Positions 4,153 to 22,710 of a stretch of 64,000 nucleotides of DNA are shown in pieces. Positions within the stretch are counted from its first letter, which is position 1. Each line of letters opens with the position of its first letter. The notes beneath the pieces are model-generated. The model was not told the origin of the DNA and searched no databases. It was given only the letters and a program-made list of their open reading frames with translations. Source of the DNA: Sedimentisphaerales bacterium (GTDB lineage Bacteria > Planctomycetota > Phycisphaerae > Sedimentisphaerales > Anaerobacaceae); NCBI GenBank assembly GCA_050012695.1, contig JBEKGR010000008.1, positions 11,092-75,091 on the forward strand. Direction: 5' to 3'. The position numbers were made by a program, and so were the translations under genes.

Positions 4153-4226
4153 TACGCCCGACAGGATTCGAACCTGTGACCTACGGATTAGAAATCCGTT
4201 GCTCTATCCAGCTGAGCTACGGGCGC
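4153..4226 (-). tRNA. tRNA-Arg (anticodon TCT)
   Basis: The reverse complement reads GCGCCCGTAGCTCAGCTGGATAGAGCAACGGATTTCTAATCCGTAGGTCACAGGTTCGAATCCTGTCGGGCGTA. It folds as a cloverleaf with a 7-bp acceptor stem (G1-U72 wobble), an ACGGA/TCCGT anticodon stem, the loop TTTCTAA and a GGTTCGAATCC T-arm. CCA is not encoded. Confidence 0.9.
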
Positions 4227-4307
4227 TAAATTTTTAAGTGGTGGTAGTATAACAACTTCTATCTTGCTTTGCCAATATCTGAAATGTCTTAGGGAGTTAA
4301 AAAGTGT
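4188..4307. repeat. Direct repeat copy A (120 bp): tRNA-Arg positions 1-38 plus 81 bp of upstream promoter region
   Basis: 119/120 identical to 21419..21538, with a single mismatch at 4293/21524. The inner boundary falls exactly at the end of the anticodon loop. Confidence 0.95.
4246..4275 (-). promoter_or_regulatory. Putative tRNA-Arg promoter (-35 TTGGCA, 18-nt spacer, extended -10 TGTTATACT)
   Basis: The minus strand reads TTGGCAAAGCAAGATAGAAGTTGTTATACTACCACC, about 20 nt upstream of tRNA position 1. It lies entirely inside repeat A. Confidence 0.5.
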
Positions 4308-4483
4308 CAGTCGCCCCCTGTTTTGGCTTCTCTTAATCTCTTAAAATCACTATGATCTGTTTCTGCCTGAATCTTGTGCCACGCATTGTAAACGGATGCT
4401 GTCATGCCGGGGTTCTAATTATAAGTGGCTCAGTTTTCGGGGGTAAGGTCACCGATAATATTAATAACCGGAAAGTACAAGTT

Positions 4484-4924
4484 ATGAAGCATTCTGAAAA
4501 ACTTAAAATTCTGTTTCTTTGCACCGGCAACTCCTGTCGGAGCCAGATGGCCGAGGGCTGGGCGAGAAAGTTTAAAAGCGATTCGATTGAGCCGTATTCG
4601 GCTGGTATAGAGCCACACGGTCTTGACCCGATTGCTGTCAAGGTTATGGCTGAGGTCGGCGTCGATATATCGAATAATCGCTCAAAACACCTCGACGATT
4701 TCAAAGGCGTAAATTTTGATTTCGTTATCACCGTCTGTGACCACGCCCACGAACACTGCCCCATTTTCTCCGGAAAAACCAGAGTTCTTCATTTCGGTTT
4801 TGATGACCCGCCTCGACTGGCAAAACAGGCAGCAAACGAGCAGGAAGTATTGGACATTTATCGTAGAGTGCGTGATGAAATAAAGGCGTTTGTGGAACAT
4901 TTACCAGATAACCTGGCGGAATGA
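4484..4924 (+). CDS. arsC: Arsenate reductase, thioredoxin-coupled LMW-PTP family
   Basis: Starts MKHSEKLKILFLCTGNSCRSQMAEGW, carrying the CX5R P-loop. It also has the Cys pair VCDHAHEHCP, as in Cys10/82/89-type ArsC. The start was moved to ATG 4484, codon 45 of the tracked ORF. Confidence 0.85.
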   Translation: MKHSEKLKILFLCTGNSCRSQMAEGWARKFKSDSIEPYSAGIEPHGLDPIAVKVMAEVGVDISNNRSKHLDDFKGVNFDFVITVCDHAHEHCPIFSGKTRVLHFGFDDPPRLAKQAANEQEVLDIYRRVRDEIKAFVEHLPDNLAE

Positions 4925-4944
4925 TACAGAAGCCGATTCGGCTG

Positions 4945-5499
4945 CTACGCATTAACCATGTTCCCTGAGCAGCTTCGTTTAAAAGCGATATAATCCTGCT
5001 CCTGCTGGTTTTCATTTCTGCAAATTTCCAGCATTCGATGGTTCTCATAAAGCCACGATTCCGCCCCGGGGCTTTTACCCATATCGAGGACAAATCTGAT
5101 ATTGACGCTAATGTCTCTCAGTGGCTCGATACCAGGTTCGCTGGATGCAAACTCCATAATCTCATCGATGTCTTCTATTACAACGCCTGTATAATACTGT
5201 TGATGTTCCCAGCGGTGCGGCACAATCAGTACGCAGCTTAGATTACTGAATGCCGACGGCCGGCCGAGCAGCAAAATGCCTGGGTCTATGACGGGTATAT
5301 ATGAGCCGTTAAATTCTATAACGCCTCTTATATGAGTGGGCTTCTTGTAATCGAGCTTTATAAGTTCCCTACAGCCCAGGCAACGCAGGTTTAATTTTCG
5401 TGTCTTGGTTTCATGAGCAAGCAGAAAGGTCGTAAACCAGTAATATTTGCTTTGGCTGATTTCTTCAACTTGCTGTGGCTCTTTTGTCATCGTTACCAT
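4945..5499 (-). CDS. CheW-like domain protein
   Basis: The core IRGVIEFNGSYIPVIDPGILLLG...CVLIV...YTGVVIEDIDEIMEF follows the CheW pattern (GV.NLRG..vPVvDL ... ivv ... G.vVD.V.eV). The rest of the protein is unassignable. Confidence 0.5.
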   Translation of the reverse strand: MVTMTKEPQQVEEISQSKYYWFTTFLLAHETKTRKLNLRCLGCRELIKLDYKKPTHIRGVIEFNGSYIPVIDPGILLLGRPSAFSNLSCVLIVPHRWEHQQYYTGVVIEDIDEIMEFASSEPGIEPLRDISVNIRFVLDMGKSPGAESWLYENHRMLEICRNENQQEQDYIAFKRSCSGNMVNA

Positions 5500-5553
5500 T
5501 TCTTTCTCCTTAAACTTTGAACTATATCGAACTTCCTCAATTACTACGTCCTC

Positions 5554-5607
5554 AGATTAATAAAGGGTTGTCAGTGGTTTATTAAATTTCTGTTAGGAAT
5601 TGGTTAA
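5554..5607 (-). promoter_or_regulatory. Pho-box-type promoter for the CheW-like gene
   Basis: The minus strand reads TTAACC-N5-CTAACA-N5-TTAATA-N5-CTGACA. The 5-mer units start on the plus strand at 5603, 5592, 5581 and 5570, an exact 11-bp phase. Nine nt further on is TAATCT (5559..5554). Confidence 0.6.
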
Positions 5608-5685
5608 TCACCATCAATATGTGTATGCCTGAAATATTCAGGAGAGGACACAAATCAATTTGACGTTCATTGTGAAGCCGCAAAT

Positions 5686-5739
5686 TTAATTCTTTTCTAA
5701 TCGATGCCTAATCGCACATCAACAAAAACGCATTAGACT
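5686..5739 (+). promoter_or_regulatory. Pho-box-type promoter for the DUF1559 / PstS-dockerin genes
   Basis: TTAAT, CTAAT, CTAAT and TCAAC(A) sit at 5686, 5697, 5708 and 5719, an exact 11-bp phase. Nine nt further on is TAGACT (5734..5739). This implies a leader of about 230 nt before the ATG at 5974. Confidence 0.55.
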
Positions 5740-5973
5740 TCTCTTCCAAATTACAGGGTTGCAGTTCAAGTATGGTGATTAGGAAAAAAGGAATGTCGAA
5801 ACTAAAACCGGTATCGCGATCAGTCGGAAGGTGCAGAAAAACTATCCCCAAATTTTTTAAAATTTTGGATTTTGGCAACCGTTCCAATCTGAGAAATGCC
5901 GGTTTTTTGTATGTTACCCGGGCCTGGAGGTCCGGACTATGAATAAGGGTTTTATTGGCTAAGGAGCGGTTTT

Positions 5974-7095
5974 ATGAAGGAATCAATTGTGGAAGCAAAA
6001 CAGGACGGAGTTTCAAAACGAAAACGAAGTATTATGCAGCAGTCGGGGTTCACTTTGGTGGAGTTGCTTGTCGTGATAGCCATCATTGCCTTGTTAATGG
6101 GAATATTGCTGCCAAGCTTAAACAAGGCAAGACAAACGGCATATTGCGCTAAAACAGGCGGCAATCTGCATAACGTGGGGCTTGCGATAGAAACATTCGC
6201 AGCTGATTTCGGGTCTTATCCGCCCTCGTATTTGTATCCCAAAGATGCGACTGTCGATGACGTTAAGTCAATAATGTGCAATGAGGACGAAAGCCATCCG
6301 TACGGCTATGTGCACTGGTCATGGTTTCTGTTTGAAAGCGGACGCGTGGATGCAAGCGCATTTACCTGCCCCGCGGTCAAAGGCGGCGGATGTCCTCGCA
6401 CCAATCCGGGCAAGAAGTTGTCTGATTGGGAAAATGGCCAACAGGACCAGACCAGCAGCAGCGGACCAAACCCCACGCTTCAGGATAAGCAGGCGCCTCG
6501 AATGGCGTTTACCGCCAACGCGGTGATTATACCGAGGAATAAATTCACCTGCGATGACACAGCCGGTTTAGCAAGGCATAACCGGCTTGTGACCCCCACG
6601 GAAATTCAACGCCCTGCCGAGGTAATCCTCTTAACCGAGTTTAACGAGGATTGGCAGGCCATTGAGGCGGTGGACAGTGGCTCCGGAACACTAGTAAGTA
6701 AAAGCCACAGGCCTATTCTGCCTTTTACGCATAGCGCAGCCGGTTATGCCGGCTACGCCATATATAATGATGCAGGGACCCGTTTTGAATATGGGACGGG
6801 ATATAATACCGCGAATGTTTCCTGGGGGCTTAAGAACTTGGCGGATATTTCAAACCCAGCTAACCATTTCATTGACGGAGAAACCGGTCATCAGCTTAAC
6901 GCGGTAGGCAGACATCATCCCGGCACATGGAAAGCCACAACCGATAAGGGAGCAAACCAGGATATGGGCGGCACCACGATGTTCCTTTATTGCGACGGAC
7001 ATACCGAGAGAAAAACAATTCTGGAGACGGTTCAAAAACTCGAATGGGGCAAAAAATTCTACAGTGTAACGGGCGACCAGTTGGTCTTTTATTGA
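5974..7095 (+). CDS. DUF1559-type protein: prepilin-like N-terminal methylation domain plus a C-terminal H-X9-DG-like motif
   Basis: Has ...QQSG/FTLVELLVVIAIIALLMGILLPSL (class III signal, Glu at +5) and the C-terminal motif MFLYCDGHTE. An AAGGAG RBS lies 7 nt before the ATG at 5974. An alternative start at 6034 would give a short leader. Confidence 0.8.
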   Translation: MKESIVEAKQDGVSKRKRSIMQQSGFTLVELLVVIAIIALLMGILLPSLNKARQTAYCAKTGGNLHNVGLAIETFAADFGSYPPSYLYPKDATVDDVKSIMCNEDESHPYGYVHWSWFLFESGRVDASAFTCPAVKGGGCPRTNPGKKLSDWENGQQDQTSSSGPNPTLQDKQAPRMAFTANAVIIPRNKFTCDDTAGLARHNRLVTPTEIQRPAEVILLTEFNEDWQAIEAVDSGSGTLVSKSHRPILPFTHSAAGYAGYAIYNDAGTRFEYGTGYNTANVSWGLKNLADISNPANHFIDGETGHQLNAVGRHHPGTWKATTDKGANQDMGGTTMFLYCDGHTERKTILETVQKLEWGKKFYSVTGDQLVFY

Positions 7096-7292
7096 TAGCG
7101 GATGATATTTAGGTGGCCGCATAATAAATTAACAAAGAACTTATTTTATTGAGAATAAAAAAGAGTGAAGGAGAAAGGAGTGACTGTAAGGTAAAAAGCA
7201 AAACTGGCGACGGGCGAGGGTGTTGAACATTAATAAGTAAAATTTAATTTATGTGTATAACTTGATAACTTTAGGTATTGTTAGGAGGAAAA

Positions 7293-9890
7293 ATGAGTAT
7301 TAGGAAAACTGTTTTTACAATTACAGCTTTGTGCTGTATCCTGCAGGCCTCACTTTTTGCGGCTGCATACGGCAACAGAAACCAGGTAAATATCACAGGC
7401 GCGACTTTGTTTGCGAATTTCTTCGCGGCGCCCGCGGGAACCAATGACTACTTAGGCGTTGACCAGGGTCTTGATTATATGGACAGCACCGGCGCTCGCC
7501 TGTACACTGACGGAGATTTCTTCCGGCTCTATGACCCGTATAATGCCAACCTCCCTGACCAATTGGCATTCACCGACTGGACTTCGACTGACGCGAATAA
7601 CCGCTGGGTAGTGCAAAGTCGCGGCGTCGGCAGTGGTAACGGTTTGAAAGAGCTCGACCTGTTCTATAACAGCGCTCCTCCCGGTCCGGGCGACCCGAAT
7701 TTTGTACTCCCAAATGACAAGTCATATATCAACCGTACGCAATGGGGCTACTCCGGCGGATTGATGGGCCCCGGTAATGCAGCTAACCCGGGTGGATGCG
7801 TTGTAGTTCCGCCAAGAATTGATATGGCCGTTATGGATGTTCCGCCGACATGGTTTGTGATGGCAGGCACAGATGTAAATGCTGACTGGCAGGCACATCC
7901 GCTGGATGCGACAAATGGCTATGGCCGTAACCCGATTAAATCATGGGACACCGCCCAGAGCAATAAATTGAAATCCCTGACCAACCTGAATTTGAACAAA
8001 GACCTCGGTTTAGCCGCTAATGCGCTGACCATATATGACACCCAGGTAGCATGGGTTCCAATTGCGTTTATTGCCAGCCAGGGAACCGGCTTGCAAAATG
8101 TTACTCAGAATGATTTGGAATATCTGTATTTGACCGGTCGTATGCCCGGCGGTGAAAACCTTTATGCCTGCACACGCGACTCCGGTTCAGGCACTCGTAA
8201 CGCAGCAATGAACTCTCTTGGTTTTGACCCGAGCTGGGGCAGAGGCGACAATATGGGCACCAAGAACTCAAATGGTAACGTTTCTTATGTCGGACCAATC
8301 CATCAGTCAAGCAACCTCGACGGCACAAGTGTTATGGCAAATGCCGTTACGAGCCAGCGTTTGGCGGTCGGATACGTCGGTCTTACAACTGCTAACACAG
8401 CAACCGGCGCGTCCAACTCGGCTTATCAAATACTGAATCTCAAAAAGACAGGCGGCACACAATATGTCAGGCCTTCACGCGAAAACACCGTAGATAACAG
8501 TGGTATTGATACCGGCTGGCAAGTCGGCGGAAACGAGACCTTCGCGACAGTCGGCAGTCCTGACCCAACTGCTGCCTTCGTGATGCCTTACAACAGGGCT
8601 GCACGCGACTATCTCTGGAACATCAAAACGAGTATAGCCGAATTTATTGCCCCCACCGGCGCTGACGATTTGAATAATATGCCCGGTCAGTACCTGGCCA
8701 GGAACTGGTCGCTGGCTGCCGCTCTCACGGCAATTCCAGATGACGTTAATCATAACCCGAGCGTTTTCGTTGCAAATCCGAATTACAACGCGAATGTGAA
8801 TGCGTATTACAAGGCACTGGGCCCAGTTACACCGGCCTGGGTCGATGGCCCGGGTAAAGTCCCGACAAGAGTTGTCGGCCCCGTCTACAGCGATGGCACA
8901 ACCGGCTCGTACTACCTTGCTTCGGATGGAACACATCTTGCCAACGGCGGAAATCTGAATGCCCGTAACACAATTATGGGCGACTTCGACAACGACGGAA
9001 AACGCGACATCGGCGACATTCACGATATGATGGTTGCATTCTCCAATCCTCGCGGCTTCGAGACAGCCGGCGCAACCGGCGTTTGCCCGGAAATCATCGG
9101 CGACTTCACTGCCGACGGCAACTTCACAACCGATGATATTCGTTACTTTGCCGATGGTCTGGCAGTTGTTGACCCGGTCAGCAAACAGGTCAATCGCTCA
9201 GTTGGTTTTGCATTAGTTGACCAGGCCTGGACCGCAGCCCTTGCTGCTATCGATAGCAATCATCCGACAGCAGGTAACTTCTTCAATACGACTCTTGCAC
9301 ACGGCACCTATCAGGCCGGTTCCGGCTGGTCAAAGGCCGACGTCGCAACGCACAATTGGAGAACAACTAATCCGAACATTGGTTATGCCCCAAGCGCAGA
9401 TGGCACAATTGACGCCTGCGACATTGACTACATCTACTTCACACAGCGCGGCGGACTTAAGGCAAAGTCCTTTGGTCAGACCCTGGCTGCCAACTGCAAC
9501 TCGTGGCAGAAAGCTATGAGCTGGAGCAACCTTGATGACGCTATATGGATGGATTTGACCTGCGACCTCAATGGCGATATGAAAGTTGATATCGAAGACG
9601 TCAGAATCATCGTTGAAGACATCCTCGGAACACATTTCGGCGATATAAACCTAGATGGCGTTGTTAATGCTGCCGACATTGCGATTATTACCGCTCACCT
9701 TGGTCAACAGGGCGGCTGGGCACAGGGTGATGTGGATGGTGACGGCTGGATTACCCAGTGCGACCTCGATATCGCAAACGGCCTTGTACAAATAGGCGGA
9801 CAAGTCGGAAGTCCTGACCTCAACGGCGACCACTTTGTGGACTTCCAGGACTTTGCTATCTTTGCAAATAGCTGGCTGCAGAGTATTTAA
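7293..9890 (+). CDS. Secreted PstS-fold (PBP_like_2) substrate-binding domain protein with C-terminal dockerin/EF-hand-like repeats
   Basis: Signal peptide MSIRKTVFTITALCCILQASLFAAA. PstS-like landmarks are GVGSGNGL and YACTRDSGSGTRNAA (compare VSRDTSSGTYETF in the PstS at 16164..16982). There are at least five D-x-D/N-x-D-G Ca-loop repeats (DFDNDGKRDIGD, GDFTADGNFTTDD, DLNGDMKVDIED, GDINLDGVVNAAD, GDVDGDGWITQCD, DLNGDHFVDFQDF). An AGGAGG RBS precedes the ATG at 7293. Confidence 0.7.
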   Translation: MSIRKTVFTITALCCILQASLFAAAYGNRNQVNITGATLFANFFAAPAGTNDYLGVDQGLDYMDSTGARLYTDGDFFRLYDPYNANLPDQLAFTDWTSTDANNRWVVQSRGVGSGNGLKELDLFYNSAPPGPGDPNFVLPNDKSYINRTQWGYSGGLMGPGNAANPGGCVVVPPRIDMAVMDVPPTWFVMAGTDVNADWQAHPLDATNGYGRNPIKSWDTAQSNKLKSLTNLNLNKDLGLAANALTIYDTQVAWVPIAFIASQGTGLQNVTQNDLEYLYLTGRMPGGENLYACTRDSGSGTRNAAMNSLGFDPSWGRGDNMGTKNSNGNVSYVGPIHQSSNLDGTSVMANAVTSQRLAVGYVGLTTANTATGASNSAYQILNLKKTGGTQYVRPSRENTVDNSGIDTGWQVGGNETFATVGSPDPTAAFVMPYNRAARDYLWNIKTSIAEFIAPTGADDLNNMPGQYLARNWSLAAALTAIPDDVNHNPSVFVANPNYNANVNAYYKALGPVTPAWVDGPGKVPTRVVGPVYSDGTTGSYYLASDGTHLANGGNLNARNTIMGDFDNDGKRDIGDIHDMMVAFSNPRGFETAGATGVCPEIIGDFTADGNFTTDDIRYFADGLAVVDPVSKQVNRSVGFALVDQAWTAALAAIDSNHPTAGNFFNTTLAHGTYQAGSGWSKADVATHNWRTTNPNIGYAPSADGTIDACDIDYIYFTQRGGLKAKSFGQTLAANCNSWQKAMSWSNLDDAIWMDLTCDLNGDMKVDIEDVRIIVEDILGTHFGDINLDGVVNAADIAIITAHLGQQGGWAQGDVDGDGWITQCDLDIANGLVQIGGQVGSPDLNGDHFVDFQDFAIFANSWLQSI

Positions 9891-10001
9891 CTTAGGATTC
9901 CTTCATAGGCCGAGATAAGCTGCTGAGGCGAGTACCCGTCGTACCTCCAACGGCAGGCCCTGGGAGAAGTGAGCACATACTTTTCCTGGGGCCGCTCGGT
10001 T

Positions 10002-10421
10002 TTAAACGAGCAAATAAATACCCCAGATATTATACCAGGCAGCGAAAATATATACAACCGACGTGGTGAGGAAAATTGAATAGGCGAATTTTCTGCAGTA
10101 AATTGCCACGTACAGACACGCCGCCCACTTCCATAATGCCGCCACCATTGGCCCGGCAACGGGGCCAAATACGACGGAAGCGAATCGGACAACCGGATGT
10201 ATCTCCGCAGAAACGCCGAGGTATGACATAAAATAAACGGTGCTAAGACCATCCGCAAGCAAAGCCAGCGTAAATACGAATATGGCTATGCGATAAGTGT
10301 GCCAGAAGCCGCGGTAATTTAATTTTAAGCGATTACTAATTGGAAGAAGCCCCGCCTCCGCAGCTATCTGCTCGCAAGCAAGCACGTTAAAATTGTCCTT
10401 TTTGGCTTGCCCAAAGTGCAT
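10002..10421 (-). CDS. Small integral membrane protein (about 4 TM, possibly DUF5658-like)
   Basis: 139 aa and hydrophobic, with LADGLSTVYFMSYLGVSAEIHP resembling the D..T...G..E.NP motif. Chosen over the overlapping ORF 9887..10258. Confidence 0.35.
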   Translation of the reverse strand: MHFGQAKKDNFNVLACEQIAAEAGLLPISNRLKLNYRGFWHTYRIAIFVFTLALLADGLSTVYFMSYLGVSAEIHPVVRFASVVFGPVAGPMVAALWKWAACLYVAIYCRKFAYSIFLTTSVVYIFAAWYNIWGIYLLV

Positions 10422-10618
10422 TTTAACTTATCTCCACTTTTCCCGATATTCCAAAATCAACCCTATAATCGACAACTGACAGGACGCCCTTAACAAGTTC
10501 TACGTCGGCAATGTCCGCGAGTTTATTGAAAAAATAATGAAATACTAATAAAGTCCTAACGCATTTAGAAGATGGCTTCATCTTTAAGCTTTAACTTTGG
10601 CTGAATATCCCTGAAATT

Positions 10619-10672
10619 TTAATCGTATTTTAATTAGTTGCTAACGCAACTCCAACGTATCGCCGGTATCTT
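10619..10672 (+). promoter_or_regulatory. Pho-box-type promoter for the second DUF1559 gene
   Basis: TTAAT, TTAAT, CTAAC and CCAAC sit at 10619, 10630, 10641 and 10652, an exact 11-bp phase. Nine nt further on is TATCTT (10667..10672). The implied leader is about 160 nt. Confidence 0.5.
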
Positions 10673-10837
10673 ATCTCTATGTGTTGCGGGCAGATATGTG
10701 GCTGGTAGATGCCGTATCCCGCAGCAGGATTATGAAGTTGATACAAAGAATGGTTTTAGGGCTGGGGATACAGATATCTCCTCCTTGAAGGAATCGTAGA
10801 ATTGTTTTTTGGACAATGGATTGAGAAGGAGAAAAAG

Positions 10838-11848: not shown

Positions 11849-11865
11849 TTTGCATTGCATTCGTA

Positions 11866-11901
11866 AGGGGCGGAGTATGGTCGTTCGGAACATCCGCCCC
11901 T
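11866..11901. terminator. Hairpin between convergent genes (candidate bidirectional terminator)
   Basis: AGGGGCGGA (11866..11874) pairs with TCCGCCCCT (11893..11901), a 9-bp GC-rich stem. The U-tract is weak (GTTCATTCT). Confidence 0.4.
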
Positions 11902-11974
11902 GTTCATTCTACAGATGGCGGGAATAAAACGACGCCGGTTTTATTACGAGTAAATATTGTGGGAAGTCAAATTT

Positions 11975-12640
11975 CTATTTGTATTCCTCTGTACGATGGC
12001 GGGCGATTTGTCCCTCGACCATATAGATAACGTCCTCAGCGATATTGGTAGCATGGTCGGCTATTCGCTCCAGGTGCCTTGACACAGACAACAGGTGAAT
12101 CAGCGACTCCAGTTGTTCGGGATTTCTTCTTATGGCGTCCTGAATTTTGATATACATCTGCCTATTCATCGCGTCAACGGCGTCATCACCGGCGCAAACC
12201 TCATGGGCCAGGCCGGAACTTAGACCGATAAGCGCATCCAGGGCGTGTTTGAGCATATCCTGCACTTTATCAACCATTTCAATCAGACCCAGAGAAAAAC
12301 CAACGGGAGGATGTTTCGACAGAAACGCCGACCGCTCCGCGATATTTACCGCCAGGTCGCCGATGCGTTCGAGGTCATTATTGATTTTCAGCACGGCAAC
12401 GATAAAACGCAAATCAATTGCAACCGGCTGATGCAGGGCGAGAATCTTGAGGCAGTCCTCCTCTACCCCGACCTCCATACTGTTAATCCGGGGGTCGTTT
12501 TGAATTATCCTCTGGGCAAGTTCGTAATCGCGGTTCTCAATCGAAAGCGTCGCGTCACGCACGGCCGTCTCAACCCTGGCGCTTAGTGTTAACAGTTTCT
12601 TTTTCAGGTTTTCAATTTCTCGCTGTAAATGAACCGGCAT
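11975..12640 (-). CDS. phoU: Phosphate signalling complex protein PhoU
   Basis: 221 aa with two PhoU repeats (ERIGDLAVNIAE and ERIADHATNIAEDV). It lies downstream of pstB. Confidence 0.9.
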   Translation of the reverse strand: MPVHLQREIENLKKKLLTLSARVETAVRDATLSIENRDYELAQRIIQNDPRINSMEVGVEEDCLKILALHQPVAIDLRFIVAVLKINNDLERIGDLAVNIAERSAFLSKHPPVGFSLGLIEMVDKVQDMLKHALDALIGLSSGLAHEVCAGDDAVDAMNRQMYIKIQDAIRRNPEQLESLIHLLSVSRHLERIADHATNIAEDVIYMVEGQIARHRTEEYK

Positions 12641-12665
12641 TTTTGAATCCTCATTATTAAAGTGT

Positions 12666-13529: not shown

Positions 13530-13532
13530 TGT

Positions 13533-15158
13533 TTAATGACCCGCCAGTTTTTTAAACACCCTTGAACGAAGAACAATTGCCACGGTATTGAGACAGAGAA
13601 TCAGCAGCACCAGTGTAACGACCATTCCGAACTGGTTATGCGGCACCATTGCGGCCAGCTTGTCGCCGACTGCCATATCGTAGCTGCCGTAGGAAAGCGT
13701 TCGTGTCGGGTCAAATATGGACTTAGGCACCGGCCCAAGCGCAACCGCCCCCGTAAACAGGACCGGCGCCGTTTCACCTGCAACCCTGCTCAAGCTCAGT
13801 ATTACGCCCGTGAGAATCCCCGGCAGAGCCGCCGGCAGAGTTACTTTGACAAACGTGCGGAATCTGCTTGCGCCCAAAGCTAATGACGCTTCTTTGTAGG
13901 TCTGGGGCACGGCCCGAATCGCCTCTTCGCTTGCTCGTATCATAACAGGCAACGTCAATACAGCCAGCGTCATCGAGGCAGCCAGGATGCATCCCTTAGA
14001 AGGAGCTCCAAATATCGGCAGGAAAAACAATACGAAAAACGCGAGTCCAAAAAGCCCGAAAACAATACTGGGAACACCCGCGAGGGTATTGATGCTCATC
14101 CTGATAATTCTCATGACAAAATTATCGGATGCACATTCCACCAGGTAGGCAGCGGAAATAACGCCGAAAGGCACGACAAAAAGCATAGCGAGTATGGTTA
14201 ACAAAAGTGTTCCGAGAATTTCGGGGCCGACGCCGCCGAAGTAATGGCCGGGAGTGCTGTCGTCTATGAAATATTGCCAGTAAAAAGTCGGTCTTGGCTT
14301 GAGCATTTCAGGCAGATTCTGCTGAATGTAAGCGAAAAGCCCCTCAATCTCCGTGCCGGCAAACCTTTGCGAACGAGGCGTCAGATGTCTGACCATCGGC
14401 TGTCCCTGTCCCTGCTTAATCCATTCCTCATACCATAACAATCGGCCAAGCAGCTTTTGTGCCAGGTCCCAGCGGGTGGCCCCGAAACGATTCATCATCA
14501 AGGCCGGCGTTGCCGCTCCGGGCGCGGGACCCAGTAGTTCGATTAAAATATCCTCAACCTGTCGAAGCTCCTGATAATACCTTTGGCGTTCGGCAAGATT
14601 AATCCCGTGTATGTCTTTGCTGTATTGTTCGGCAAGCCCAATGAGACCTGCTGCGGAGGTATTCTTAAACCGTGGGTCGTCTTTGAAGTTGAGGACGTAT
14701 GCTAAGGATTCATTCACTTCTGCCGTGTTTGAGCTTGCGAAAGCCGATTCAAGCCGGTCGCGAATCTGCCTTGTAACAGACCTTAACTCAGCGACTTCCT
14801 CTGCGGTTTGGTCTGTTTGCCGGAGGTCGTTTCCGAACTGACGGTAAATTTGTCTTGCTTTCTCTATAAGGTTCCCGGAATCGATGCCGCCTTTGAATTT
14901 TTCGATTGTGCTGTAAATTTTCGCCCGTGCTGTTTCTGCCTGTCTGCTTTCCGCTGCTATCTTGTCCTCATCGCCCCGGCCGAACAGCACTAATTGCATC
15001 TTTCTGAATTCGACTGTTTCCTTGAATACGACCGCCGAACCTCCGCGCCAAAGCATCGGCCCAAGCACCGCCACCAGCACTAAGCACAGGCAAACCACCG
15101 AAGCTCCCGCAACAACGGTGAATATCTTGTCTATCGCAATTCGAACACCTGGTCTCAT
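13533..15158 (-). CDS. pstA: Phosphate ABC transporter permease PstA (long form)
   Basis: The C-terminal permease core carries EASLALGASRFRTFVKVTLPAALPGI. A hydrophilic insert of about 270 aa follows TM1. The start overlaps the pstC stop by 1 nt (TGATG). Confidence 0.85.
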   Translation of the reverse strand: MRPGVRIAIDKIFTVVAGASVVCLCLVLVAVLGPMLWRGGSAVVFKETVEFRKMQLVLFGRGDEDKIAAESRQAETARAKIYSTIEKFKGGIDSGNLIEKARQIYRQFGNDLRQTDQTAEEVAELRSVTRQIRDRLESAFASSNTAEVNESLAYVLNFKDDPRFKNTSAAGLIGLAEQYSKDIHGINLAERQRYYQELRQVEDILIELLGPAPGAATPALMMNRFGATRWDLAQKLLGRLLWYEEWIKQGQGQPMVRHLTPRSQRFAGTEIEGLFAYIQQNLPEMLKPRPTFYWQYFIDDSTPGHYFGGVGPEILGTLLLTILAMLFVVPFGVISAAYLVECASDNFVMRIIRMSINTLAGVPSIVFGLFGLAFFVLFFLPIFGAPSKGCILAASMTLAVLTLPVMIRASEEAIRAVPQTYKEASLALGASRFRTFVKVTLPAALPGILTGVILSLSRVAGETAPVLFTGAVALGPVPKSIFDPTRTLSYGSYDMAVGDKLAAMVPHNQFGMVVTLVLLILCLNTVAIVLRSRVFKKLAGH

Positions 15159-16156
15159 CAGCGTTTCCCGCCCGCCTTTTTGGCTCGTATAAGAAAATAT
15201 TCACTGACCATATTCAGGCACAAAGTTATAACCAGCAGAAGCAATCCCGCTGCAAAAAGCGCCCTGTAATGAGGGGAGCCCTTTTCTGTCTCGCCCATAT
15301 CGCCCGCGATTGTCGCCGTCAGGGTCCGAACCGATTGCGACAAGTCCCACCACGGATGCGGTATCTGTGCAGCGTTTCCCGACGCCATCCACACGACCAT
15401 TGTCTCGCCGATTGCCCTCATCATTCCAAGCACTATCCCGGCGATTATCCCGCTGTGTGCAGCCGGTATAACAACTTTGAAAATGGTCTCCATTCGCGTC
15501 GCGCCACACCCGTATGACGCCTCTCTCAATTCCCTTCCTATCGCTGAAATCGAATCTTCAGAAACACTTATTATCGTAGGTAATGCCATTACCGCCAAAA
15601 CAAGCGACGCGTTAAGGGCGTTGGTGCCCGTAGAAAACCCGAACTTTTGCTGCATCCACGGAGCCAGAACCATCACCGCGAAAAAACCGTAAGCAACCGA
15701 CGGTATCGCCGCGAGAATCTCAATAATCGGCTTTATAATGTTCCTGATTTTCATCGAAACAATGTCGCTCAGGAAAACCGCGGCTAAAATCCCCACCGGT
15801 ACGGCAAATATAATCGAGACAATTGTTACATAGCCAGAACCCACGAGTAACGCGAGTGTCCCGAATTTCGGTGTGACTGCTTCGGGATACCATGAGGTGC
15901 TTGTGAGAAACTCTGTTATGCTGAATTTGGCAAGAAACGGCAGCGCCTCTCTGATTACGAACAGGAAAATCAGGAACACCGCCAAGACAGAGGTGCATGT
16001 AACAAGAAAAAGAGCCATCCGGCCGAGGTGAAGCGTAAGGAAACCCCTGATATCCTCGGTCGGTGTAAGCACCAGCGGCCGATGTGAATCGGCCGCCGGC
16101 GCTAACGTGTCCAGTAAAGTTCCCTGCTTTGCTTTAATCGCTGAACTCTCCAACAA
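15158..16156 (-). CDS. pstC: Phosphate ABC transporter permease PstC
   Basis: 332 aa with 6 TM and the EAA-like loop EASYGCGATRMETIFKVVIPAAHSGI. Confidence 0.85.
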   Translation of the reverse strand: MLESSAIKAKQGTLLDTLAPAADSHRPLVLTPTEDIRGFLTLHLGRMALFLVTCTSVLAVFLIFLFVIREALPFLAKFSITEFLTSTSWYPEAVTPKFGTLALLVGSGYVTIVSIIFAVPVGILAAVFLSDIVSMKIRNIIKPIIEILAAIPSVAYGFFAVMVLAPWMQQKFGFSTGTNALNASLVLAVMALPTIISVSEDSISAIGRELREASYGCGATRMETIFKVVIPAAHSGIIAGIVLGMMRAIGETMVVWMASGNAAQIPHPWWDLSQSVRTLTATIAGDMGETEKGSPHYRALFAAGLLLLVITLCLNMVSEYFLIRAKKAGGKR

Positions 16157-16163
16157 CAGGTAA

Positions 16164-16982
16164 TTAGTAGTTCGTCACAGGAACAAACCCCTTCGCTAAA
16201 ATAATTTCCTGGCCCTTTTCGGTCAGATAGAACGTGCAGAACTTAAAGACCGTTGACCCAAGTTTCGGATAGCCATTTGTGAACATAAACAAAGGTCTTG
16301 CAACGGGGTAAGTACCGTTTGCAATGGTCTGCTTTGTCGGCGCAATTCCGTCGATTTTCAACGCCTTGACCTCGGCATCAACGAAACCAATACCGACGTA
16401 GCTGATTGCACCGGCGGTGGTTTTCACTCTTGCCTGTGCCTGCGGATTTGAGTTGACGTATTCGACGTTTTTGGCCAGCTCTTCCTTGTTCATAACCTTC
16501 TCGTGGAACGTCTCGTATGTTCCCGACGATGTGTCTCTGCTGACAATCACTATTTCCGCATCAGGTCCGCCTATTTCTTTCCAGTTCTTGGTTTTGCCAT
16601 TATAAATATCTCGCACCTGGGCCGTAGTCAGTGCGGCTACCGTGTTCGACGGATGCACGATGATACATACCCCGTCCATCGCAATCGCGTGTGCAACCGG
16701 GAATACGTTGTGGTCAACGGCGCTTTTGAATTCTTTGTCCTTCATAAACCGGCTCAAAGTCGCTATGTCGCACCGGCTGTCAATTAGTGCGGCAGCCCCG
16801 TCGCCACTACCGGTCTTTTTTACGGTAATCTCAAGACCGGGGTTGGTCCTCATAAAATATTCAGCAAAAGCATCTGCAATCGGACCGACAGTTGTCGAAC
16901 CATCGATTTGCAGCGTCTCCGCCCGCACCAGACCTGTGGCTGCGAGCATCAGTAAAGCTAAACTAAATACCAATCTCTTCAT
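16164..16982 (-). CDS. pstS: Phosphate-binding protein PstS
   Basis: Has a signal peptide, GSTTVGPIADAFAEYF and VSRDTSSGTYETF (PBP_like_2). It is the first gene of pstSCAB-phoU. Confidence 0.85.
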   Translation of the reverse strand: MKRLVFSLALLMLAATGLVRAETLQIDGSTTVGPIADAFAEYFMRTNPGLEITVKKTGSGDGAAALIDSRCDIATLSRFMKDKEFKSAVDHNVFPVAHAIAMDGVCIIVHPSNTVAALTTAQVRDIYNGKTKNWKEIGGPDAEIVIVSRDTSSGTYETFHEKVMNKEELAKNVEYVNSNPQAQARVKTTAGAISYVGIGFVDAEVKALKIDGIAPTKQTIANGTYPVARPLFMFTNGYPKLGSTVFKFCTFYLTEKGQEIILAKGFVPVTNY

Positions 16983-17003
16983 TTCGTTGTCTCCTTCTCA
17001 CTT

Positions 17004-17057
17004 AGTTTAAGTGAGCATTGTTAAAATTATGTTAATAATCGGTTAATCTTTCGTTAG
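17004..17057 (-). promoter_or_regulatory. Pho-box promoter of pstSCAB-phoU
   Basis: The minus strand reads CTAACG-N5-TTAACC-N5-TTAACA-N5-TTAACA. Plus-strand GTTAA/GTTAG units sit at 17053, 17042, 17031 and 17020. Nine nt further on is TAAACT (17009..17004). An 8-bp leader hairpin CTCACTTA/TAAGTGAG (16997..17015) follows. Confidence 0.7.
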
Positions 17058-17069
17058 AGCAAATCATCT

Positions 17070-18362
17070 CTAAAACTTGAAAACCAAATCCGCCTGCAGC
17101 CGGCGATATTTATCGTTCGTGGTTATATTTTCATCGATGAAGTAGCTCAGGCCGGTCTGGAAATTCTTCGCTAATTGATAGGTGAAGTTAAACCAGTGTC
17201 CTCTTGCATTTGTGCCGCCGCCGTTGAAATCGGAATCGTTGAATTGGCCTAACACGGCATCGGACTGAACTTCACGATAGTTATAGCCGAGTTGCCAGGA
17301 GCCGGGGTCTTTGGCCTTGTTGAACGTGGTTCCGATAAGCCAGGCATTGTTATGTGAACCGGGCGCATCCGTGTTACGAGCAGCATCGCCATACACTGCG
17401 ACCGGATAATCCGCGATTTTAGTGCCATATTCCGCGAAACCTTCTACGATGTCATAACCGTATTTGTATTTCCCGGCAGAAGCGGTGTTGCCGAAGAAAC
17501 TGTTCTTGCCCCACAGCGAGCTGACGTTGGGTTCATCCTCGATATGCCCGTATGTGTAATAGCCCAGGCCGCCCAGCAGGTAACTTTTATTCTCAAACGT
17601 ATTCTTCAGATAACCCTGTATTGCCCACAGTGATGTAGAAGCCCCAACTGCGGTATCGGGATTATCGGGATGCCCAACCCAGAATCCGCCGCCGTTGATA
17701 TATGCCTTTAGCGAATCGTTAATCGGCATTTCGTATTTGACAGCCAGTCCCTCCGGATTCAAATCGTCATCCCAGATTAACTGGTTGTCGCCAACGCGGT
17801 AGAATGGCTTGTTCATTTTGCCGCCGATGAAGTCAAAACCCTTTATATCTTTAGGATGCCAGTCGAAGTATGCAAGGTCGAGCCATATCGCCTTCTTGCT
17901 GAAAGCATCCCCCTCGGTCTGGTTTGTCGAGACAGGGTCAGCCGAACCTCCGGCTAAACGGAATCCAAGGTCAACCTCGTCATTGACTTTATCGTAAAGT
18001 CCAATTCTCGCGCGAAGCCGATTTCGTTCTACACTGTTGCTGTTGCCCTTGCTCGACCATTTACTTTTGCTCTGTGAATCAATTCCCTCGTAGCGGTATC
18101 TCAAATCGCCGCTGATTTTCATGTTCTCCACCCACTTGATACTGTCCGGCAATTTTGCCTGTTTCTGCTCTACGGCCTTGTTGACCTCCTCGGCGACGAC
18201 CTTCTTCTGCTGCGATTCCATCTGGTCAAGCCTGGCTTGCAAATCAGCGATCTGCTTTTTCATATCGCTGATATCGTCCGCCTTGACGCTGCAGGCGAAA
18301 ACCAAACTTAGCAGCAGACAACCACAAATCATCCTTAATTTATTCATTACTCGTACCTCCAT
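17070..18362 (-). CDS. Outer-membrane porin, probably phosphate-selective (OprO/OprP-like)
   Basis: Has a signal peptide, an N-terminal coiled coil (DISDMKKQIADLQARLDQMESQQKK), beta-strand-rich alternating sequence and the C-terminal LVFKF. It sits between phoR and pstS behind its own Pho box. Confidence 0.6.
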   Translation of the reverse strand: MEVRVMNKLRMICGCLLLSLVFACSVKADDISDMKKQIADLQARLDQMESQQKKVVAEEVNKAVEQKQAKLPDSIKWVENMKISGDLRYRYEGIDSQSKSKWSSKGNSNSVERNRLRARIGLYDKVNDEVDLGFRLAGGSADPVSTNQTEGDAFSKKAIWLDLAYFDWHPKDIKGFDFIGGKMNKPFYRVGDNQLIWDDDLNPEGLAVKYEMPINDSLKAYINGGGFWVGHPDNPDTAVGASTSLWAIQGYLKNTFENKSYLLGGLGYYTYGHIEDEPNVSSLWGKNSFFGNTASAGKYKYGYDIVEGFAEYGTKIADYPVAVYGDAARNTDAPGSHNNAWLIGTTFNKAKDPGSWQLGYNYREVQSDAVLGQFNDSDFNGGGTNARGHWFNFTYQLAKNFQTGLSYFIDENITTNDKYRRLQADLVFKF

Positions 18363-18432
18363 AAAACACTTCTTTATTACCTGAACGCTGACCCGAGACC
18401 ACCCCGGATGGCGATGTACCCGTTGAGGTCGG

Positions 18433-18486
18433 ATTTTACGTGAGTTTCGCTAAAGGCCCGTTAAATTGATGTTAGAATTGCGTTAA
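18433..18486 (-). promoter_or_regulatory. Pho-box promoter of the porin gene
   Basis: The minus strand reads TTAACG-N5-CTAACA-N5-TTAACG-N5-TTAGCG. Plus-strand units sit at 18482, 18471, 18460 and 18449. Nine nt further on is TAAAAT (18438..18433). Confidence 0.65.
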
Positions 18487-18524
18487 TTAAGGGGGTTATT
18501 GGAGTAAGTTGAGAAAATGTTTAT

Positions 18525-20351
18525 CTAAATAGGCAGGTGAATAGTGAAGGTGCTGCCCTGGCCGGGAGAGCTTTCGACAGAAACTGAGCCGCCGTGAAGA
18601 TTGGTGATATGCTTGACGATGGCAAGGCCAAGGCCCGTCCCGCCGAGTTTTCTCGTGCGGGCCTTGTCAACAACGTAGAACCGCTCGAATAAGCGTGAAA
18701 GATGGCTCTCTTCTATGCCGCAGCCCGAATCCTTCACCGCGATTGTCGCTTCCTTGTCGTCTTTTCTGGCGCTTATCTGAATCGTGCTATCGGCAGGACT
18801 ATATTTAATAGCGTTATCAACGAGATTCAAAACCGCCTGCTCGAGCAAAGTCGGGTTTATCAACGCCTCCAAATCGTCATCGCAATCAATCTCGATTTTG
18901 ATTTTCTTATCGCCTGCCTTCGGGCCGGAAAGCTCAATTGCTGATTCCAGCACTGGTCTGACCGTCAAATGTTCCCTCGCAATCATCCTCTTCTGGCCGT
19001 CTTCTTCCAGGCGGGACAAGCTCAGCAAATCTTCTATAATCGCCATCAATCTGTCCGTATGGCCCGCTATAATTTTGAGAAATCGCTGTGCCTGCTCGGG
19101 TTCGTTAATGGCGCCGTCTAAGAGCGTCTCAACGAATCCTTTGATGGAAGTAATCGGCGTTCTCAGCTCGTGCGAAACGTTGGCCACAAAGTCGCGCCTG
19201 ATGTTTTCCAGCCGCTGCATTCTTGTCATATCGCTTAATACGATAACGGCTCCGTTTTTATTGCCCTGATGGTCGGTGAGGTACGTGCCCCTTGCCCGCA
19301 GCGAAACGGGCTGCTCTGCTCCGCCATCGGCGCTGCCGATGGCGAGACCTCGCTCGTCCCTAAGGGACGAGGCGGGCGCCATAACAATATCCTCTTCGGT
19401 TGGCGTAGAGGACATCAGGGTATATCGCATAAATCGCTGGATATCCACGTTCCTGATGACCTCTTCAATACTGTGTCCCGTGGCTGAGACGACATCTATC
19501 TCAAGAAGCATCGCCGCTTTTTTATTGATGCTCACGACTCGTCCGTCCGAATCCACGGCTATCACGCCCTCGGCCATACTGCTTAAAATCGCTTCAAGCT
19601 GATTCTTCTGGTTTGTTATGGTTTCGATTGTTCGCTTCAGGCGGTCAGCGGTTTCGTTAAGCGCACCGGCAAGCTCGGCTAATTCTTCAGAATCCGGCAC
19701 CGGCACCCTGTGGTCCAACTGCCCCGTGGCAAACCGCTTCGCGGCGTCTTTCATTTGTTCGATTGGCTTGGTTATCTTGCGGGATACAACCAAAGTTACG
19801 CCCGCCGCACAAACCGCCGCCCCGATAACGCCCCACGCGATTTTTGCGTAAATATCATTTAGCGCCTTGTCAACAGCGATAACCGAAAGCGACCCGCGAA
19901 CTACAGCTATTGTTTGCTCCTGTTCTTTGAGAGGCACAGCGATATACATCATATTTTTGCCAAGGGTGTCGCTGAATCGCACGCTCCTGCCTGTCCGCCC
20001 GTTCATCGCCTGCCTGAATTCAGGACGGTCCGCGTGATTTTCCATTTTGGCCGGCTGCTGGTCCGAATCACCTACAACCCGGCCGTCAGGCAGTATCATC
20101 GTAAGCCGAATCCCGGCGGTTTGACCAAGCAATTTGCACACTTGGTCAACTTCCTCGAAATTTTTCTGGTTCACAGCGGGTAAAATCTGCTGCCCTGCAA
20201 GCCGGGTCCTCGATTCGAGGTTTTGCGCAATCTCATCGTAATAAAACCAGCGGAACGAATAAGACGCATACCAGCTTAAAAGAACAAGCGATAAGATAGT
20301 AATTATCAGGTAGGGAAGATAAAGCTGCCAAAGCAGCCGCTTCTTTGCCAT
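18525..20351 (-). CDS. phoR: Sensor histidine kinase PhoR
   Basis: 608 aa with 2 TM flanking a periplasmic domain, then HAMP, PAS, HisKA (SHELRTPITSIKGFVETL) and HATPase (GGTGLGLAIVKH). It lies 3 nt downstream of phoB. Confidence 0.85.
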   Translation of the reverse strand: MAKKRLLWQLYLPYLIITILSLVLLSWYASYSFRWFYYDEIAQNLESRTRLAGQQILPAVNQKNFEEVDQVCKLLGQTAGIRLTMILPDGRVVGDSDQQPAKMENHADRPEFRQAMNGRTGRSVRFSDTLGKNMMYIAVPLKEQEQTIAVVRGSLSVIAVDKALNDIYAKIAWGVIGAAVCAAGVTLVVSRKITKPIEQMKDAAKRFATGQLDHRVPVPDSEELAELAGALNETADRLKRTIETITNQKNQLEAILSSMAEGVIAVDSDGRVVSINKKAAMLLEIDVVSATGHSIEEVIRNVDIQRFMRYTLMSSTPTEEDIVMAPASSLRDERGLAIGSADGGAEQPVSLRARGTYLTDHQGNKNGAVIVLSDMTRMQRLENIRRDFVANVSHELRTPITSIKGFVETLLDGAINEPEQAQRFLKIIAGHTDRLMAIIEDLLSLSRLEEDGQKRMIAREHLTVRPVLESAIELSGPKAGDKKIKIEIDCDDDLEALINPTLLEQAVLNLVDNAIKYSPADSTIQISARKDDKEATIAVKDSGCGIEESHLSRLFERFYVVDKARTRKLGGTGLGLAIVKHITNLHGGSVSVESSPGQGSTFTIHLPI

Positions 20352-20354
20352 CCA

Positions 20355-21038
20355 TTAGTCCTTGAAACGATAGCCCACGCCTCTTACGGTCTCAATGTAT
20401 TTTCCGAACTGGCCGAGCTTGCGCCGCAGCGACACAATCTGCACATCCACGGCCCGGTCGGTCACAACATAATTGCTGCCGCGAATCGCGTCAACTATAT
20501 TGTATCTGCTTAGCACCAGTCCTGGTCTCTTCGCAAGCGTGTAAAGAATCATAAACTCCGTAAAGGTCAGTTCAACCGGCTTGTTTTTGAGTTTCACCTC
20601 GTATCGGGCGGGGTCTATTGTTAAATCGTGAATCTTGACGGGCGTATTTTCCTGCTTTGCTGCTGTGGCCCTGTATAGAATCCGCCGAACCCTGGCGATA
20701 AGAACCTTTGGGCTAAACGGCTTTGTTACATAATCATCCGCGCCGACCTCCAAGCCGGAGACAACATCGGACTCCTCACCTTTGGCAGTCAGCATTATTA
20801 TAGGTATTGAGCTGGTTTTCGAATCGGCCTTAAGCTGCCTGCAAACTTCGATGCCGTCTATCCCCGGCAGCATACGGTCAAGCAGTATGGCGCTGGGCGG
20901 GTTGGCCTTCGCCTTTTTCACCGCCTCTTCGCCGGTAACAGCCGTTTCAACTTTGAATCCTTCTTTGTTGAAGTTGTAACGCACCAGTTCCAGCACATCT
21001 TCTTCGTCATCTACAGCGAGTATGCTTCCTCTAACCAC
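20355..21038 (-). CDS. phoB: OmpR-family response regulator PhoB
   Basis: Receiver domain (DDEEDVLELV ... LDRMLPGIDG ... MLTAKG) plus a winged-helix domain (IETVRGVGYRF). Confidence 0.85.
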   Translation of the reverse strand: MVRGSILAVDDEEDVLELVRYNFNKEGFKVETAVTGEEAVKKAKANPPSAILLDRMLPGIDGIEVCRQLKADSKTSSIPIIMLTAKGEESDVVSGLEVGADDYVTKPFSPKVLIARVRRILYRATAAKQENTPVKIHDLTIDPARYEVKLKNKPVELTFTEFMILYTLAKRPGLVLSRYNIVDAIRGSNYVVTDRAVDVQIVSLRRKLGQFGKYIETVRGVGYRFKD

Positions 21039-21067
21039 TTGTATCCCTTTCCCTATGTTTCTTGGAT

Positions 21068-21121
21068 AGTATCCACTGTCTATGTTAGCAAATGATTAGT
21101 TTAATGTAAAAACTTTGTTAA
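21068..21121 (-). promoter_or_regulatory. Pho-box promoter of phoBR (autoregulation)
   Basis: The minus strand reads TTAACA-N5-TTTACA-N5-CTAATC-N5-CTAACA. Plus-strand units sit at 21117, 21106, 21095 and 21084. Nine nt further on is GATACT (21073..21068). Confidence 0.65.
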
Positions 21122-21418
21122 ACCAAAATTCCGGGAAGGTATGACATTATGTTACTTTACTGAAAAACACAAAAGCAGCACGTATAATTAAACAGGTTTG
21201 ATTGCAATCACTACTATTGTTCTTCGTTAGCAGCTATAGCATCGGTTGAGGGATTTGGTCAAGCATTGTCAACGGTGTCAAAAAAGTGTCAGTCGCCAGT
21301 GGTTTACCACTGTAAGTTCACTTGTAAACGAGTAGTTAACCACTTGTAATCCTCGTTTTTAGCCCAAAAACGAGATGCAACCCATTGTTAACACTATACT
21401 TACAACCACCATTTTGGG

Positions 21419-21457
21419 TTAGAAATCCGTTGCTCTATCCAGCTGAGCTACGGGCGC
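21419..21457 (-). pseudogene. Truncated tRNA-Arg(TCT) copy: positions 1-38 only (acceptor 5' strand, D-arm, anticodon stem 5' strand and loop)
   Basis: Identical to 4188..4226. No matching 3' half (no ggattcgaacc on the plus strand) occurs anywhere in 21039..21418. Confidence 0.9.
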
Positions 21458-21538
21458 TAAATTTTTAAGTGGTGGTAGTATAACAACTTCTATCTTGCTT
21501 TGCCAATATCTGAAATGTCTTAGAGAGTTAAAAAGTGT
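21419..21538. repeat. Direct repeat copy B (120 bp), including a second intact copy of the tRNA promoter (-10 at 21477..21482, -35 at 21501..21506)
   Basis: 119/120 identical to 4188..4307, offset by 17231 bp. Confidence 0.95.
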
Positions 21539-22689: not shown

Positions 22690-22710
22690 TTTATTTCTCC
22701 TCACTTATGT

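Follow-up and report, generated by a model that had tools for sequence, protein, structure and literature searches.

An anticodon-loop junction between half of a tRNA-Arg gene and the region upstream of phoBR in a Sedimentisphaerales bacterium: a possible recombination scar beside a native Pho cluster

We analysed 64,000 nucleotides of a Sedimentisphaerales bacterium (contig JBEKGR010000008.1, positions 11,092 to 75,091; hereafter the window), in which two direct repeats made of the 5′ half of a tRNA-Arg(UCU) gene plus its promoter lie on either side of a 17.2-kb phosphate (Pho) gene cluster. One repeat, copy A, belongs to the intact tRNA gene. The other, copy B, would be a dead but promoter-bearing 5′ half of the lineage's own tRNA-Arg(UCU), derived from the intact gene 17.2 kb away and fused, where the anticodon loop ends on its 3′ side, to a conserved 283-bp module upstream of the phoBR promoter. 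A first-pass annotation had taken the pair for the scar of an integrase-type insertion with the Pho regulon as its cargo. The reading that we favour, and to which we give an even chance, is that part of the resident tRNA-Arg was recently copied within the chromosome, giving copy B at an attachment-site (att)-type scar in a rearrangement hotspot upstream of phoB, and that the Pho cluster is native.

Direct comparison of 4188..4307 with 21419..21538 reproduced the reported identity of 119/120, the single mismatch being 4293/21524; lengthened by 3 nt, the pair is identical at 121/123 positions, with a second mismatch at 4187/21418. A repeat search of the window paired 4185-4307 with 21416-21538, at a start-to-start spacing of 17,231 bp. 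The repeated content is tRNA nt 1-39 (standard positions 1-38) and 81 bp upstream, and its tRNA-side boundary is the last base of the anticodon loop TTTCTAA. Within the 81 bp of both copies lies a predicted σ70-like promoter, TTGGCA-18-TATACT with an extended TG. The sole tRNA that ARAGORN called in the window is tRNA-Arg(tct), on the minus strand; a full tRNA is formed at copy A only, and copy B is truncated at the anticodon loop. On the content of the repeat, its end at the loop and the single complete tRNA, ARAGORN and our comparison agree with the first-pass annotation.

The evidence that carries the favoured reading is a junction that recurs in related species (L numbers denote the loci compared). 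In the window, the tRNA-Arg 5′ half is joined to the module at the loop TTTCTAA. In L018/L122, the module's partner is a promoter-bearing tRNA-Met 5′ half (loop CTCATAA), which agrees base for base with the complete tRNA-Met genes of L012 and L016 as far as ...CTCATAATCC. L011 carries a second, different tRNA-Met 5′ half, likewise with a promoter of its own (loop TTCATAA); as far as ...TTCATAAGCCC, it does not differ from the intact tRNA-Met of L031. In L017, an inverted Gly-like tRNA 3′ half ends at the loop (TTGGGAA as read); this piece was read by eye, with no ARAGORN call there. The distance from the loop end to a GAGG(A/T)TT(A/G)CAAGT motif in the module is exactly 64 nt in 4/4 module-bearing genomes. 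The four tRNA pieces (Arg, two Met and Gly-like) thus show what is expected of an att-type site, a fixed breakpoint at the anticodon loop and the same partner coordinate. No second copies of the tRNA fragments were seen in the L011, L017 and L018 loci within 10 kb downstream of phoR.

Such an exact-register junction with different tRNAs points, as far as sequence comparison can tell, to site-specific recombination at anticodon loops. The conserved core-to-repeat distance may resemble the arms of integrase attachment sites. In the favoured reading, the tRNA gene whose anticodon-loop end was fused to the module's left end would differ between all four species, and the junction would most likely be an att-type scar left by a recombinase presumably of the tyrosine-integrase class. 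The integrase-type scar of the first-pass annotation therefore holds in part: its loop endpoint is borne out, and joins at the same nucleotide were found in three other species, but the acquired Pho cargo that it included is not upheld.

Four loop-ended pieces in one register are very hard to explain by random breakage, and this bears on the simplest alternative, a non-specific local event. Here, template switching or break repair would have copied a 120-bp tRNA-Arg patch into a rearrangement junction, and the loop endpoint would be coincidental. The copy is indeed recent, its template lies 17 kb away on the same chromosome, and this genome family rearranges often, with other neighbours at these boundaries in nearly every species. 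We nevertheless hold such an event to be very improbable, because all four independent pieces, from as many tRNA genes, stop at the loop and join the module at the 64-nt register, an outcome that random breakpoints are very unlikely to give.

The surroundings of the junction are unsettled throughout the family. The DNA just past the proximal phoB promoter differs in every species. Intact tRNA genes were found upstream of phoB in L008 (Tyr), L012 (Met) and L009 (Ser), and tRNA debris in L014 (a tRNA 3′ piece) and L018 (a second piece). At L013:6623-7744, a full Phage_integrase open reading frame (ORF), encoding a tyrosine integrase, lies upstream of phoB (E = 1e-18); it is the only locus where one was seen. 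The debris of L014 consists of a Mutator-family transposase fragment with the tRNA 3′ piece (L014:1531-2076 and 2500-2553), and L019:1033-1353 holds a short ORF upstream of phoB that resembles an integrase N-terminus, a weak match below the Pfam threshold. Taken together, these finds mark the DNA upstream of phoB as, most likely, a hotspot of tRNA-linked rearrangement in this family.

Copy A is the native tRNA-Arg gene. The gene, its promoter and ~40 more upstream bases, including the GGCGACTGACACTTTTT box, form one conserved unit in L015, L006, L005 and L113, and the genes farther upstream differ in each genome (Pho genes, a sugar ABC operon, glycoside hydrolases, IS110/Hcp). What had been taken for an insertion scar at copy A, the context holding the 17-mer, is thus the native upstream region of tRNA-Arg in five species. 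L015, a complete 2.6-Mb chromosome, has the order phoB...phoU-cheW-arsC-tRNA-Arg-efflux with the same junction as copy A; the Pho cluster therefore adjoined tRNA-Arg already in the common ancestor with the window lineage. Synteny accordingly speaks against the insertion first proposed, since L015 has this same cluster and junction without copy B, and counterparts of the genes of window 32264..43748 stand directly upstream of its phoB. An empty site, with cysK next to tRNA-efflux, was not found in any contig.

The age of copy B can be read from substitutions. At positions 4262, 4261, 4243 and 4227 both window copies agree, unlike L015, L006 and L005. Copy B therefore arose from copy A, or was last homogenised with it, only once the lineage had parted from L015, the four substitutions being lineage-specific. 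At the single promoter difference between the copies, it is copy B that retains the ancestral base. By this comparison, copy B is younger than the arsC-tRNA-Arg-efflux junction, unless gene conversion acted.

Two further loci vary beside the tRNA-Arg gene. In sample ERZ27250006, a strain (L003) agrees with the window at 99.7% over the efflux operon and tRNA. Its promoter allele upstream of the tRNA is another one (L003:1-233, window 4153..4263): similarity is ~75% in the 37 nt beside the tRNA, the sequence farther out is unrelated, and a TGACAC box is lacking. The contig breaks off 157 bp upstream of the tRNA; in this strain, the 5′ side of tRNA-Arg may be occupied by another element or allele. 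In L113:5417-10000 (metagenome-assembled genome SPRUCE_266), the tRNA-Arg unit is intact and ~4.5 kb with a CBM_4_9 gene separates the tRNA 3′ end from the efflux-operon upstream region. Homology to the window resumes immediately past this block, and the Pho cluster of this genome lies on another contig (L010).

The Pho cluster itself bears the marks of inheritance. The order phoB-phoR-porin-pst-phoU is common to 12/12 related Sedimentisphaerales species (L008-L019), with PhoR identities of 84-92%; beyond phoU, these relatives have either the N-methyl/139-aa/dockerin genes or cheW-arsC. The GC content is flat at ~0.49-0.50 over the window, and 4308..21418 stands at a tetranucleotide L1 distance of 0.109 from the remainder of the window, compared with 0.090-0.125 for other 17-kb window segments. 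A composition that would mark the segment as foreign, which the first-pass annotation had put forward as a check, was thus not found. The surroundings are housekeeping genes, e.g. polA, lgt, panC, cmk and dprA. Pfam found no integrase or transposase domain in any large ORF of 4352..21038, in agreement with what had been noticed before, and neither domain in the other window ORFs scanned. The gene content first given was broadly right, except that the two proteins called DUF1559 gave only an N-terminal methylation motif in Pfam; for the protein of 870 aa called PstS-dockerin, the dockerin domain stands and is its only Pfam match. We do not count the Pho regulon as inserted cargo, because the cluster is syntenic in relatives and of native composition: the 17.2-kb cluster is vertically inherited and was not imported.

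These results bear directly on the insertion model of the first-pass annotation. Spelled out in full, the model makes the 17.2-kb segment from module to copy A an old 5′-fragment island in the tRNA-Arg anticodon loop that brought a promoter and 5′ half along with it; the responsible integrase would be either gone or active in trans, and gene conversion would have kept the copies identical. The geometry passes the configuration, orientation, end-fragment and length filters of Islander, but no integrase was found between the repeats and the enclosed cluster is core, syntenic and compositionally native. That the DNA upstream of the tRNA-Arg unit varies in every species is expected of insertion on the 5′ side; however, the right-hand junction of L015 is orthologous and yet comes without copy B, the cysK-side spacer lies upstream of tRNA-Arg in no relative, and the empty site is missing from our data. 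The 17-mer box lies ~135 nt to one side of the loop (upstream of copy A) and ~125-150 nt to the other (in the module), and together with the ACAAGTG repeats it resembles two attP arms. The shared derived substitutions of the copies, on the other hand, demand concerted evolution. Finally, the module-phoB linkage accompanies different tRNA partners in L011, L017 and L018, although the inverted 3′-half junction of L017 is not an island attL. We consider this model doubtful.

A bolder version makes the phoBR-pst cluster an integrase-less 5′-fragment island mobilised in trans. Its att arms would be the module and the box with tRNA promoter and 5′ half, and it would hop between tRNA genes across species, each time leaving a live tRNA promoter reading into phoBR and so putting the phosphate regulator under a stable-RNA promoter. 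This we regard as quite unlikely.

The module to which copy B is fused is orthologous and adjoins phoB in L011 (88% identity) and L017 (82-84%), and is present also in L018/L122 (76%). It consists of a variable 64-nt proximal part, a hairpin, two or three ACAAGTG-type direct repeats and a nearly invariant block, GACTGACACTTTTTTGACACCGTTGA..TTGACC. This block contains the second occurrence of the 17-mer, which is found exactly twice in the window (4299-4315 and 21281-21297), with none further at ≤ 3 mismatches; 0.09 matches are expected by chance. The second occurrence had been noted before, correctly, but the first had been assigned to the outer junction of copy A, and 4299-4315 spans the inner end, facing the Pho segment. 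Nor is the 17-mer a degraded third junction, as had been suggested: it represents a TGACA-repeat box that is conserved both in the native region upstream of tRNA-Arg and in the phoB-upstream sequence of relatives. The tRNA-Arg upstream box of L005 equals the module box at 21/22 bases, and a comparable box lies upstream of the tRNA-Met fragment's promoter in L011. Judged by this conservation, the 17-mer box is a cis element and not a decayed att site. It is related to Pho-box-like repeats and is found upstream of tRNA promoters too. A role as a general Pho box was rejected, as there are only two matches in 64 kb even at three mismatches. The ACAAGTG and TGACAC direct repeats of the module could be candidate arm-type sites.

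Other identities considered for the module were set aside. Rfam gave no match to a known RNA family, group I intron or riboswitch (20900..21800, E up to 1). The start of the module is not a decayed tRNA 3′ half or split-tRNA intron; it is without T-arm or acceptor complement, and the intact gene lies 17 kb off. An IS200/IS605-type insertion, considered for the subterminal hairpin, would not as a simple insertion duplicate a tRNA 5′ half. Neither the module core nor the L003 promoter allele had a match in viral contigs.

Two side observations concern this region. The phoB ribosome-binding site and GTG start region (21032..21048, GGGATACAAGTGGTTA) and the module's ACAAGTG repeat at 21337..21353 (AGGATTACAAGTGGTTA) agree at 15/17 positions, which could be chance or the trace of an old duplication. 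In L018/L122, a polyphosphate block (ppk1, ppx, HD, CHAD, ppk2) lies inside the module, exactly between its −35-like and −10-like parts; such a block stands divergently upstream of phoB at L018:677-8560, L122:1364-9247, L124:1-7290 and L010:5791-6606, and there is none there in the window.

How copy B may have arrived can be sketched in two steps. Unequal exchange between the module's left end and the anticodon loop of tRNA-Arg would first give a tandem duplication with the joint of copy B and module. The duplication would then collapse by deletion between two TGACAC boxes, which would account for two details: the repeat's promoter-side end lies within the box, and the spacer terminates in the half-box GAAGTCAA|ACAC. 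In its present position, read-through from copy B via the module into phoBR is plausible, because the predicted tRNA promoter of copy B is intact and the terminator scan found no terminator-like site between copy B and phoB.

On the far side of copy B, a spacer separates it from cysK, the first gene of a stretch that we call block X. No clear homologue of the spacer was found in any fetched locus, the only match being a weak one in L037 (70% over 114 nt). The relatives of cysK were also tried as a way to an empty site; the closest, L024 (90% identity), has unrelated downstream genes and no spacer homologue. Block X, the spacer, copy B and the module are all absent from the corresponding place in L015. 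At 32225..32232 (minus strand), 5 nt beyond the end of the L015 synteny, lies TTTCTAAT, i.e. the tRNA-Arg anticodon loop plus one base, and this sequence has only two occurrences on the window minus strand, the other being in the tRNA. TTTCTAA thus flanks block X and copy B on both sides, in direct orientation.

This arrangement invites a further alternative, in which block X, spacer and copy B (21419..32232) form a 5′-type element that carries the tRNA-Arg promoter and 5′ half and came to rest not in tRNA-Arg itself but at a secondary site, the module's left end. The DNA that the window has in excess of L015 is indeed block X, spacer, copy B and module; yet L015 also lacks the module and is hence not a clean empty site. 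The chance probability of the TTTCTAA bracketing is ~1e-3 by a rough post hoc estimate, and the 8-mer match was itself noticed post hoc. No integrase was found in block X, DUF3034-metY-cysK is a conserved housekeeping trio in distant relatives, and L128 speaks for neither polarity. We therefore think it unlikely that block X moved in this way.

The preferred explanation, that copy B is a recent partial copy of tRNA-Arg at an att-type scar, has its own difficulties. Between species, the identity of the module's initial 64 nt is only 44-56%, even though their length is kept and the distal part reaches up to 92%, and the homology between the window and L011 breaks ~48 nt into the module. In sequence, the four anticodon loops are not alike; one att core therefore could not share an identical overlap region with all of them. 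The module-bearing species sampled number four. No recombinase gene was found in the window ORFs scanned, the duplication-then-collapse route is a reconstruction, not a direct observation, and L128, a third species, has yet another neighbour at the relevant boundary and so favours neither side as the one that moved. A wider search for module-bearing species, by way of PhoB cluster members, yielded none beyond the window's own species and those already sampled.

Misassembly of the repeat or its junctions is very unlikely. The stretch from cysK through copy B to phoB is matched at 99.99-100% by contigs of three ENA samples (L104-L106) and of two further samples from the Joint Genome Institute (L115, L116), and its junction is also spanned in strains of 97.5-99.9% identity (L108, L117, L121). 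The copy A junction, with arsC, copy A and the efflux operon, is carried by L001 and L002. As regards excision, every recovered contig that carries identical PhoB or HlyD is in the occupied arrangement. None of the contigs fetched holds both junctions. Short-read contigs L107, L109 and L118-L120 do end in or beside copy B, as contigs will at repeats, which is what a chimeric repeat or junction would have in its favour. However, at least five samples from two sequencing projects have contigs over cysK, copy B and phoB at 97.5-100% identity, L001 and L002 cover the other side, and the k141 names of the ENA contigs suggest that the last k-mer used, 141, exceeded the repeat length of 120 bp. The possibility of an artefact, raised with the first-pass annotation, thus meets independent assemblies of several samples that contain each junction, and we find it scarcely credible.

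Table 1. Coordinates of the features discussed, numbered from the first base of the window.
Feature	Coordinates	Strand	Description	Basis
Terminator-like hairpin downstream of tRNA-Arg	4133..4112			terminator scan
tRNA-Arg(UCU), intact	4153..4226	minus		ARAGORN
Repeat copy A	4188..4307	minus	tRNA nt 1-39 and 81 bp with promoter; −35 TTGGCA 4275..4270, −10 TATACT 4251..4246	
Native tRNA-Arg upstream context past repeat end (ctxA)	4299..4345	minus	holds the GGCGACTGACACTTTTT box, the 17-mer 4299..4315	
Genes between the repeats	4352..21038		low-molecular-weight phosphatase/ArsC-like, CheW-like, two N-methyl-motif proteins, 870-aa dockerin protein, 139-aa hypothetical	Pfam
Genes between the repeats, continued	within 4352..21038		phoU, pstBACS, porin, phoR, phoB	Pfam
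Proximal phoB promoter region	21039..21135	minus	TTAACA-N5-TTTACA repeats 21105..21121, −10 TAACAT; kept in all relatives	
Module	21136..21418	minus	between copy B and phoB promoter; hairpin 21352..21374, ACAAGTG-type direct repeats ~21305..21352, TGACA-repeat box 21265..21297	
Repeat copy B	21419..21538	minus	promoter (21506..21477) and tRNA-Arg 5′ half fused to module	
Spacer	21539..21753	minus	cysK stop to copy B; last bases GAAGTCAA|ACAC, degenerate half of TGACAC box	
Block X	21754..32237		cysK, metY, DUF3034, small ORFs, type II secretion system F/F/E-like genes, extracytoplasmic function sigma factor and putative anti-sigma factor	Pfam

Some features of the Pho cluster deserve mention in their own right. 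Direct repeats of the type TTAACA-N5-TTAACA, with 11-bp spacing, lie on the minus strand directly upstream of pstS (17019..17046) and phoB (21105..21121). They resemble the PhoP boxes of Bacillus (TT[A/T/C]ACA repeats), and are probably the Pho box of this organism. At L015:13300-17216 and L009:13340-17248, pstS/C/A are replaced by a distant type (pstC ~28%, pstB 57% identical), while phoB, phoR, porin and phoU of these clusters are still orthologous; the pattern appears to indicate mosaic replacement inside the Pho cluster of L015 and L009. In L002:330-4259 (window 5974..9890), the efflux and ArsC-like proteins are identical to those of the window and the N-methyl and dockerin proteins only 81-85% so, a comparison that suggests a local recombination or diversification hotspot inside the segment.

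When a tRNA gene is accompanied by a tRNA fragment, the pair is routinely taken to signal an acquired island; here it brackets core, inherited genes, a concrete instance in which this rule would yield a false positive. The recurrent fusion of promoter-bearing tRNA halves upstream of phoBR suggests that anticodon-loop recombinases may reshuffle gene neighbourhoods in Planctomycetota, beyond inserting foreign DNA, and they may also put strong tRNA promoters upstream of a global regulator. If confirmed, the locus would be a tractable example of the poorly studied 5′-fragment class of tRNA integration.

In the Islander collection (Hudson, Lau and Williams 2015, PMC4383910), 159 of the 3919 tRNA-gene islands leave a 5′ fragment and 3760 a 3′ fragment, and 2083 islands have an anticodon-centred attP. 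Our locus is like the 5′-fragment class in that an intact tRNA gene and a cognate end fragment (nt 1-39, 21419..21457) lie on the same replicon in the same orientation, both on the minus strand, with the fragment upstream of the gene and the crossover at the anticodon loop; the 17-kb interval also falls within the 2-200 kb that Islander allows. Unlike Islander islands, it has no tyrosine integrase inside or overlapping the interval, which holds core, syntenic and compositionally native genes. The identity, moreover, runs 81 bp into non-coding promoter DNA, with lineage-specific substitutions, and a relative (L015) has the regenerated-tRNA junction without the fragment. The general marks of acquired islands, absence from close relatives or patchiness and atypical composition, are both wanting in the Pho cluster. 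Because the integrase and both of these marks are missing, the locus should not be filed as a genomic island.

Two other systems offer partial parallels. Prochlorococcus reportedly has variable islands that are flanked by tRNA genes or partial tRNA repeats and contain phosphate-acquisition genes. The window likewise has phosphate-regulon genes in a tRNA-bounded, rearrangement-prone region; in Prochlorococcus, however, the content is said to vary by strain and the tRNA pieces to be 3′ ones, whereas the Pho cluster here is conserved and only its flanks vary. Bacterial chromosomes also carry scars of tandem duplication and collapse, and their short dispersed repeats can evolve in concert by RecA-dependent gene conversion. 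Near-identical direct repeats around a native segment, and a copy younger than the surrounding synteny, are shared with such scars, but ordinary duplication does not predict a repeat that ends at the anticodon loop or a junction that recurs elsewhere with other tRNAs. Thus, 5′-fragment tRNA-gene islands were known already, and what is new here is a recurrent junction with different tRNAs beside a core regulator.

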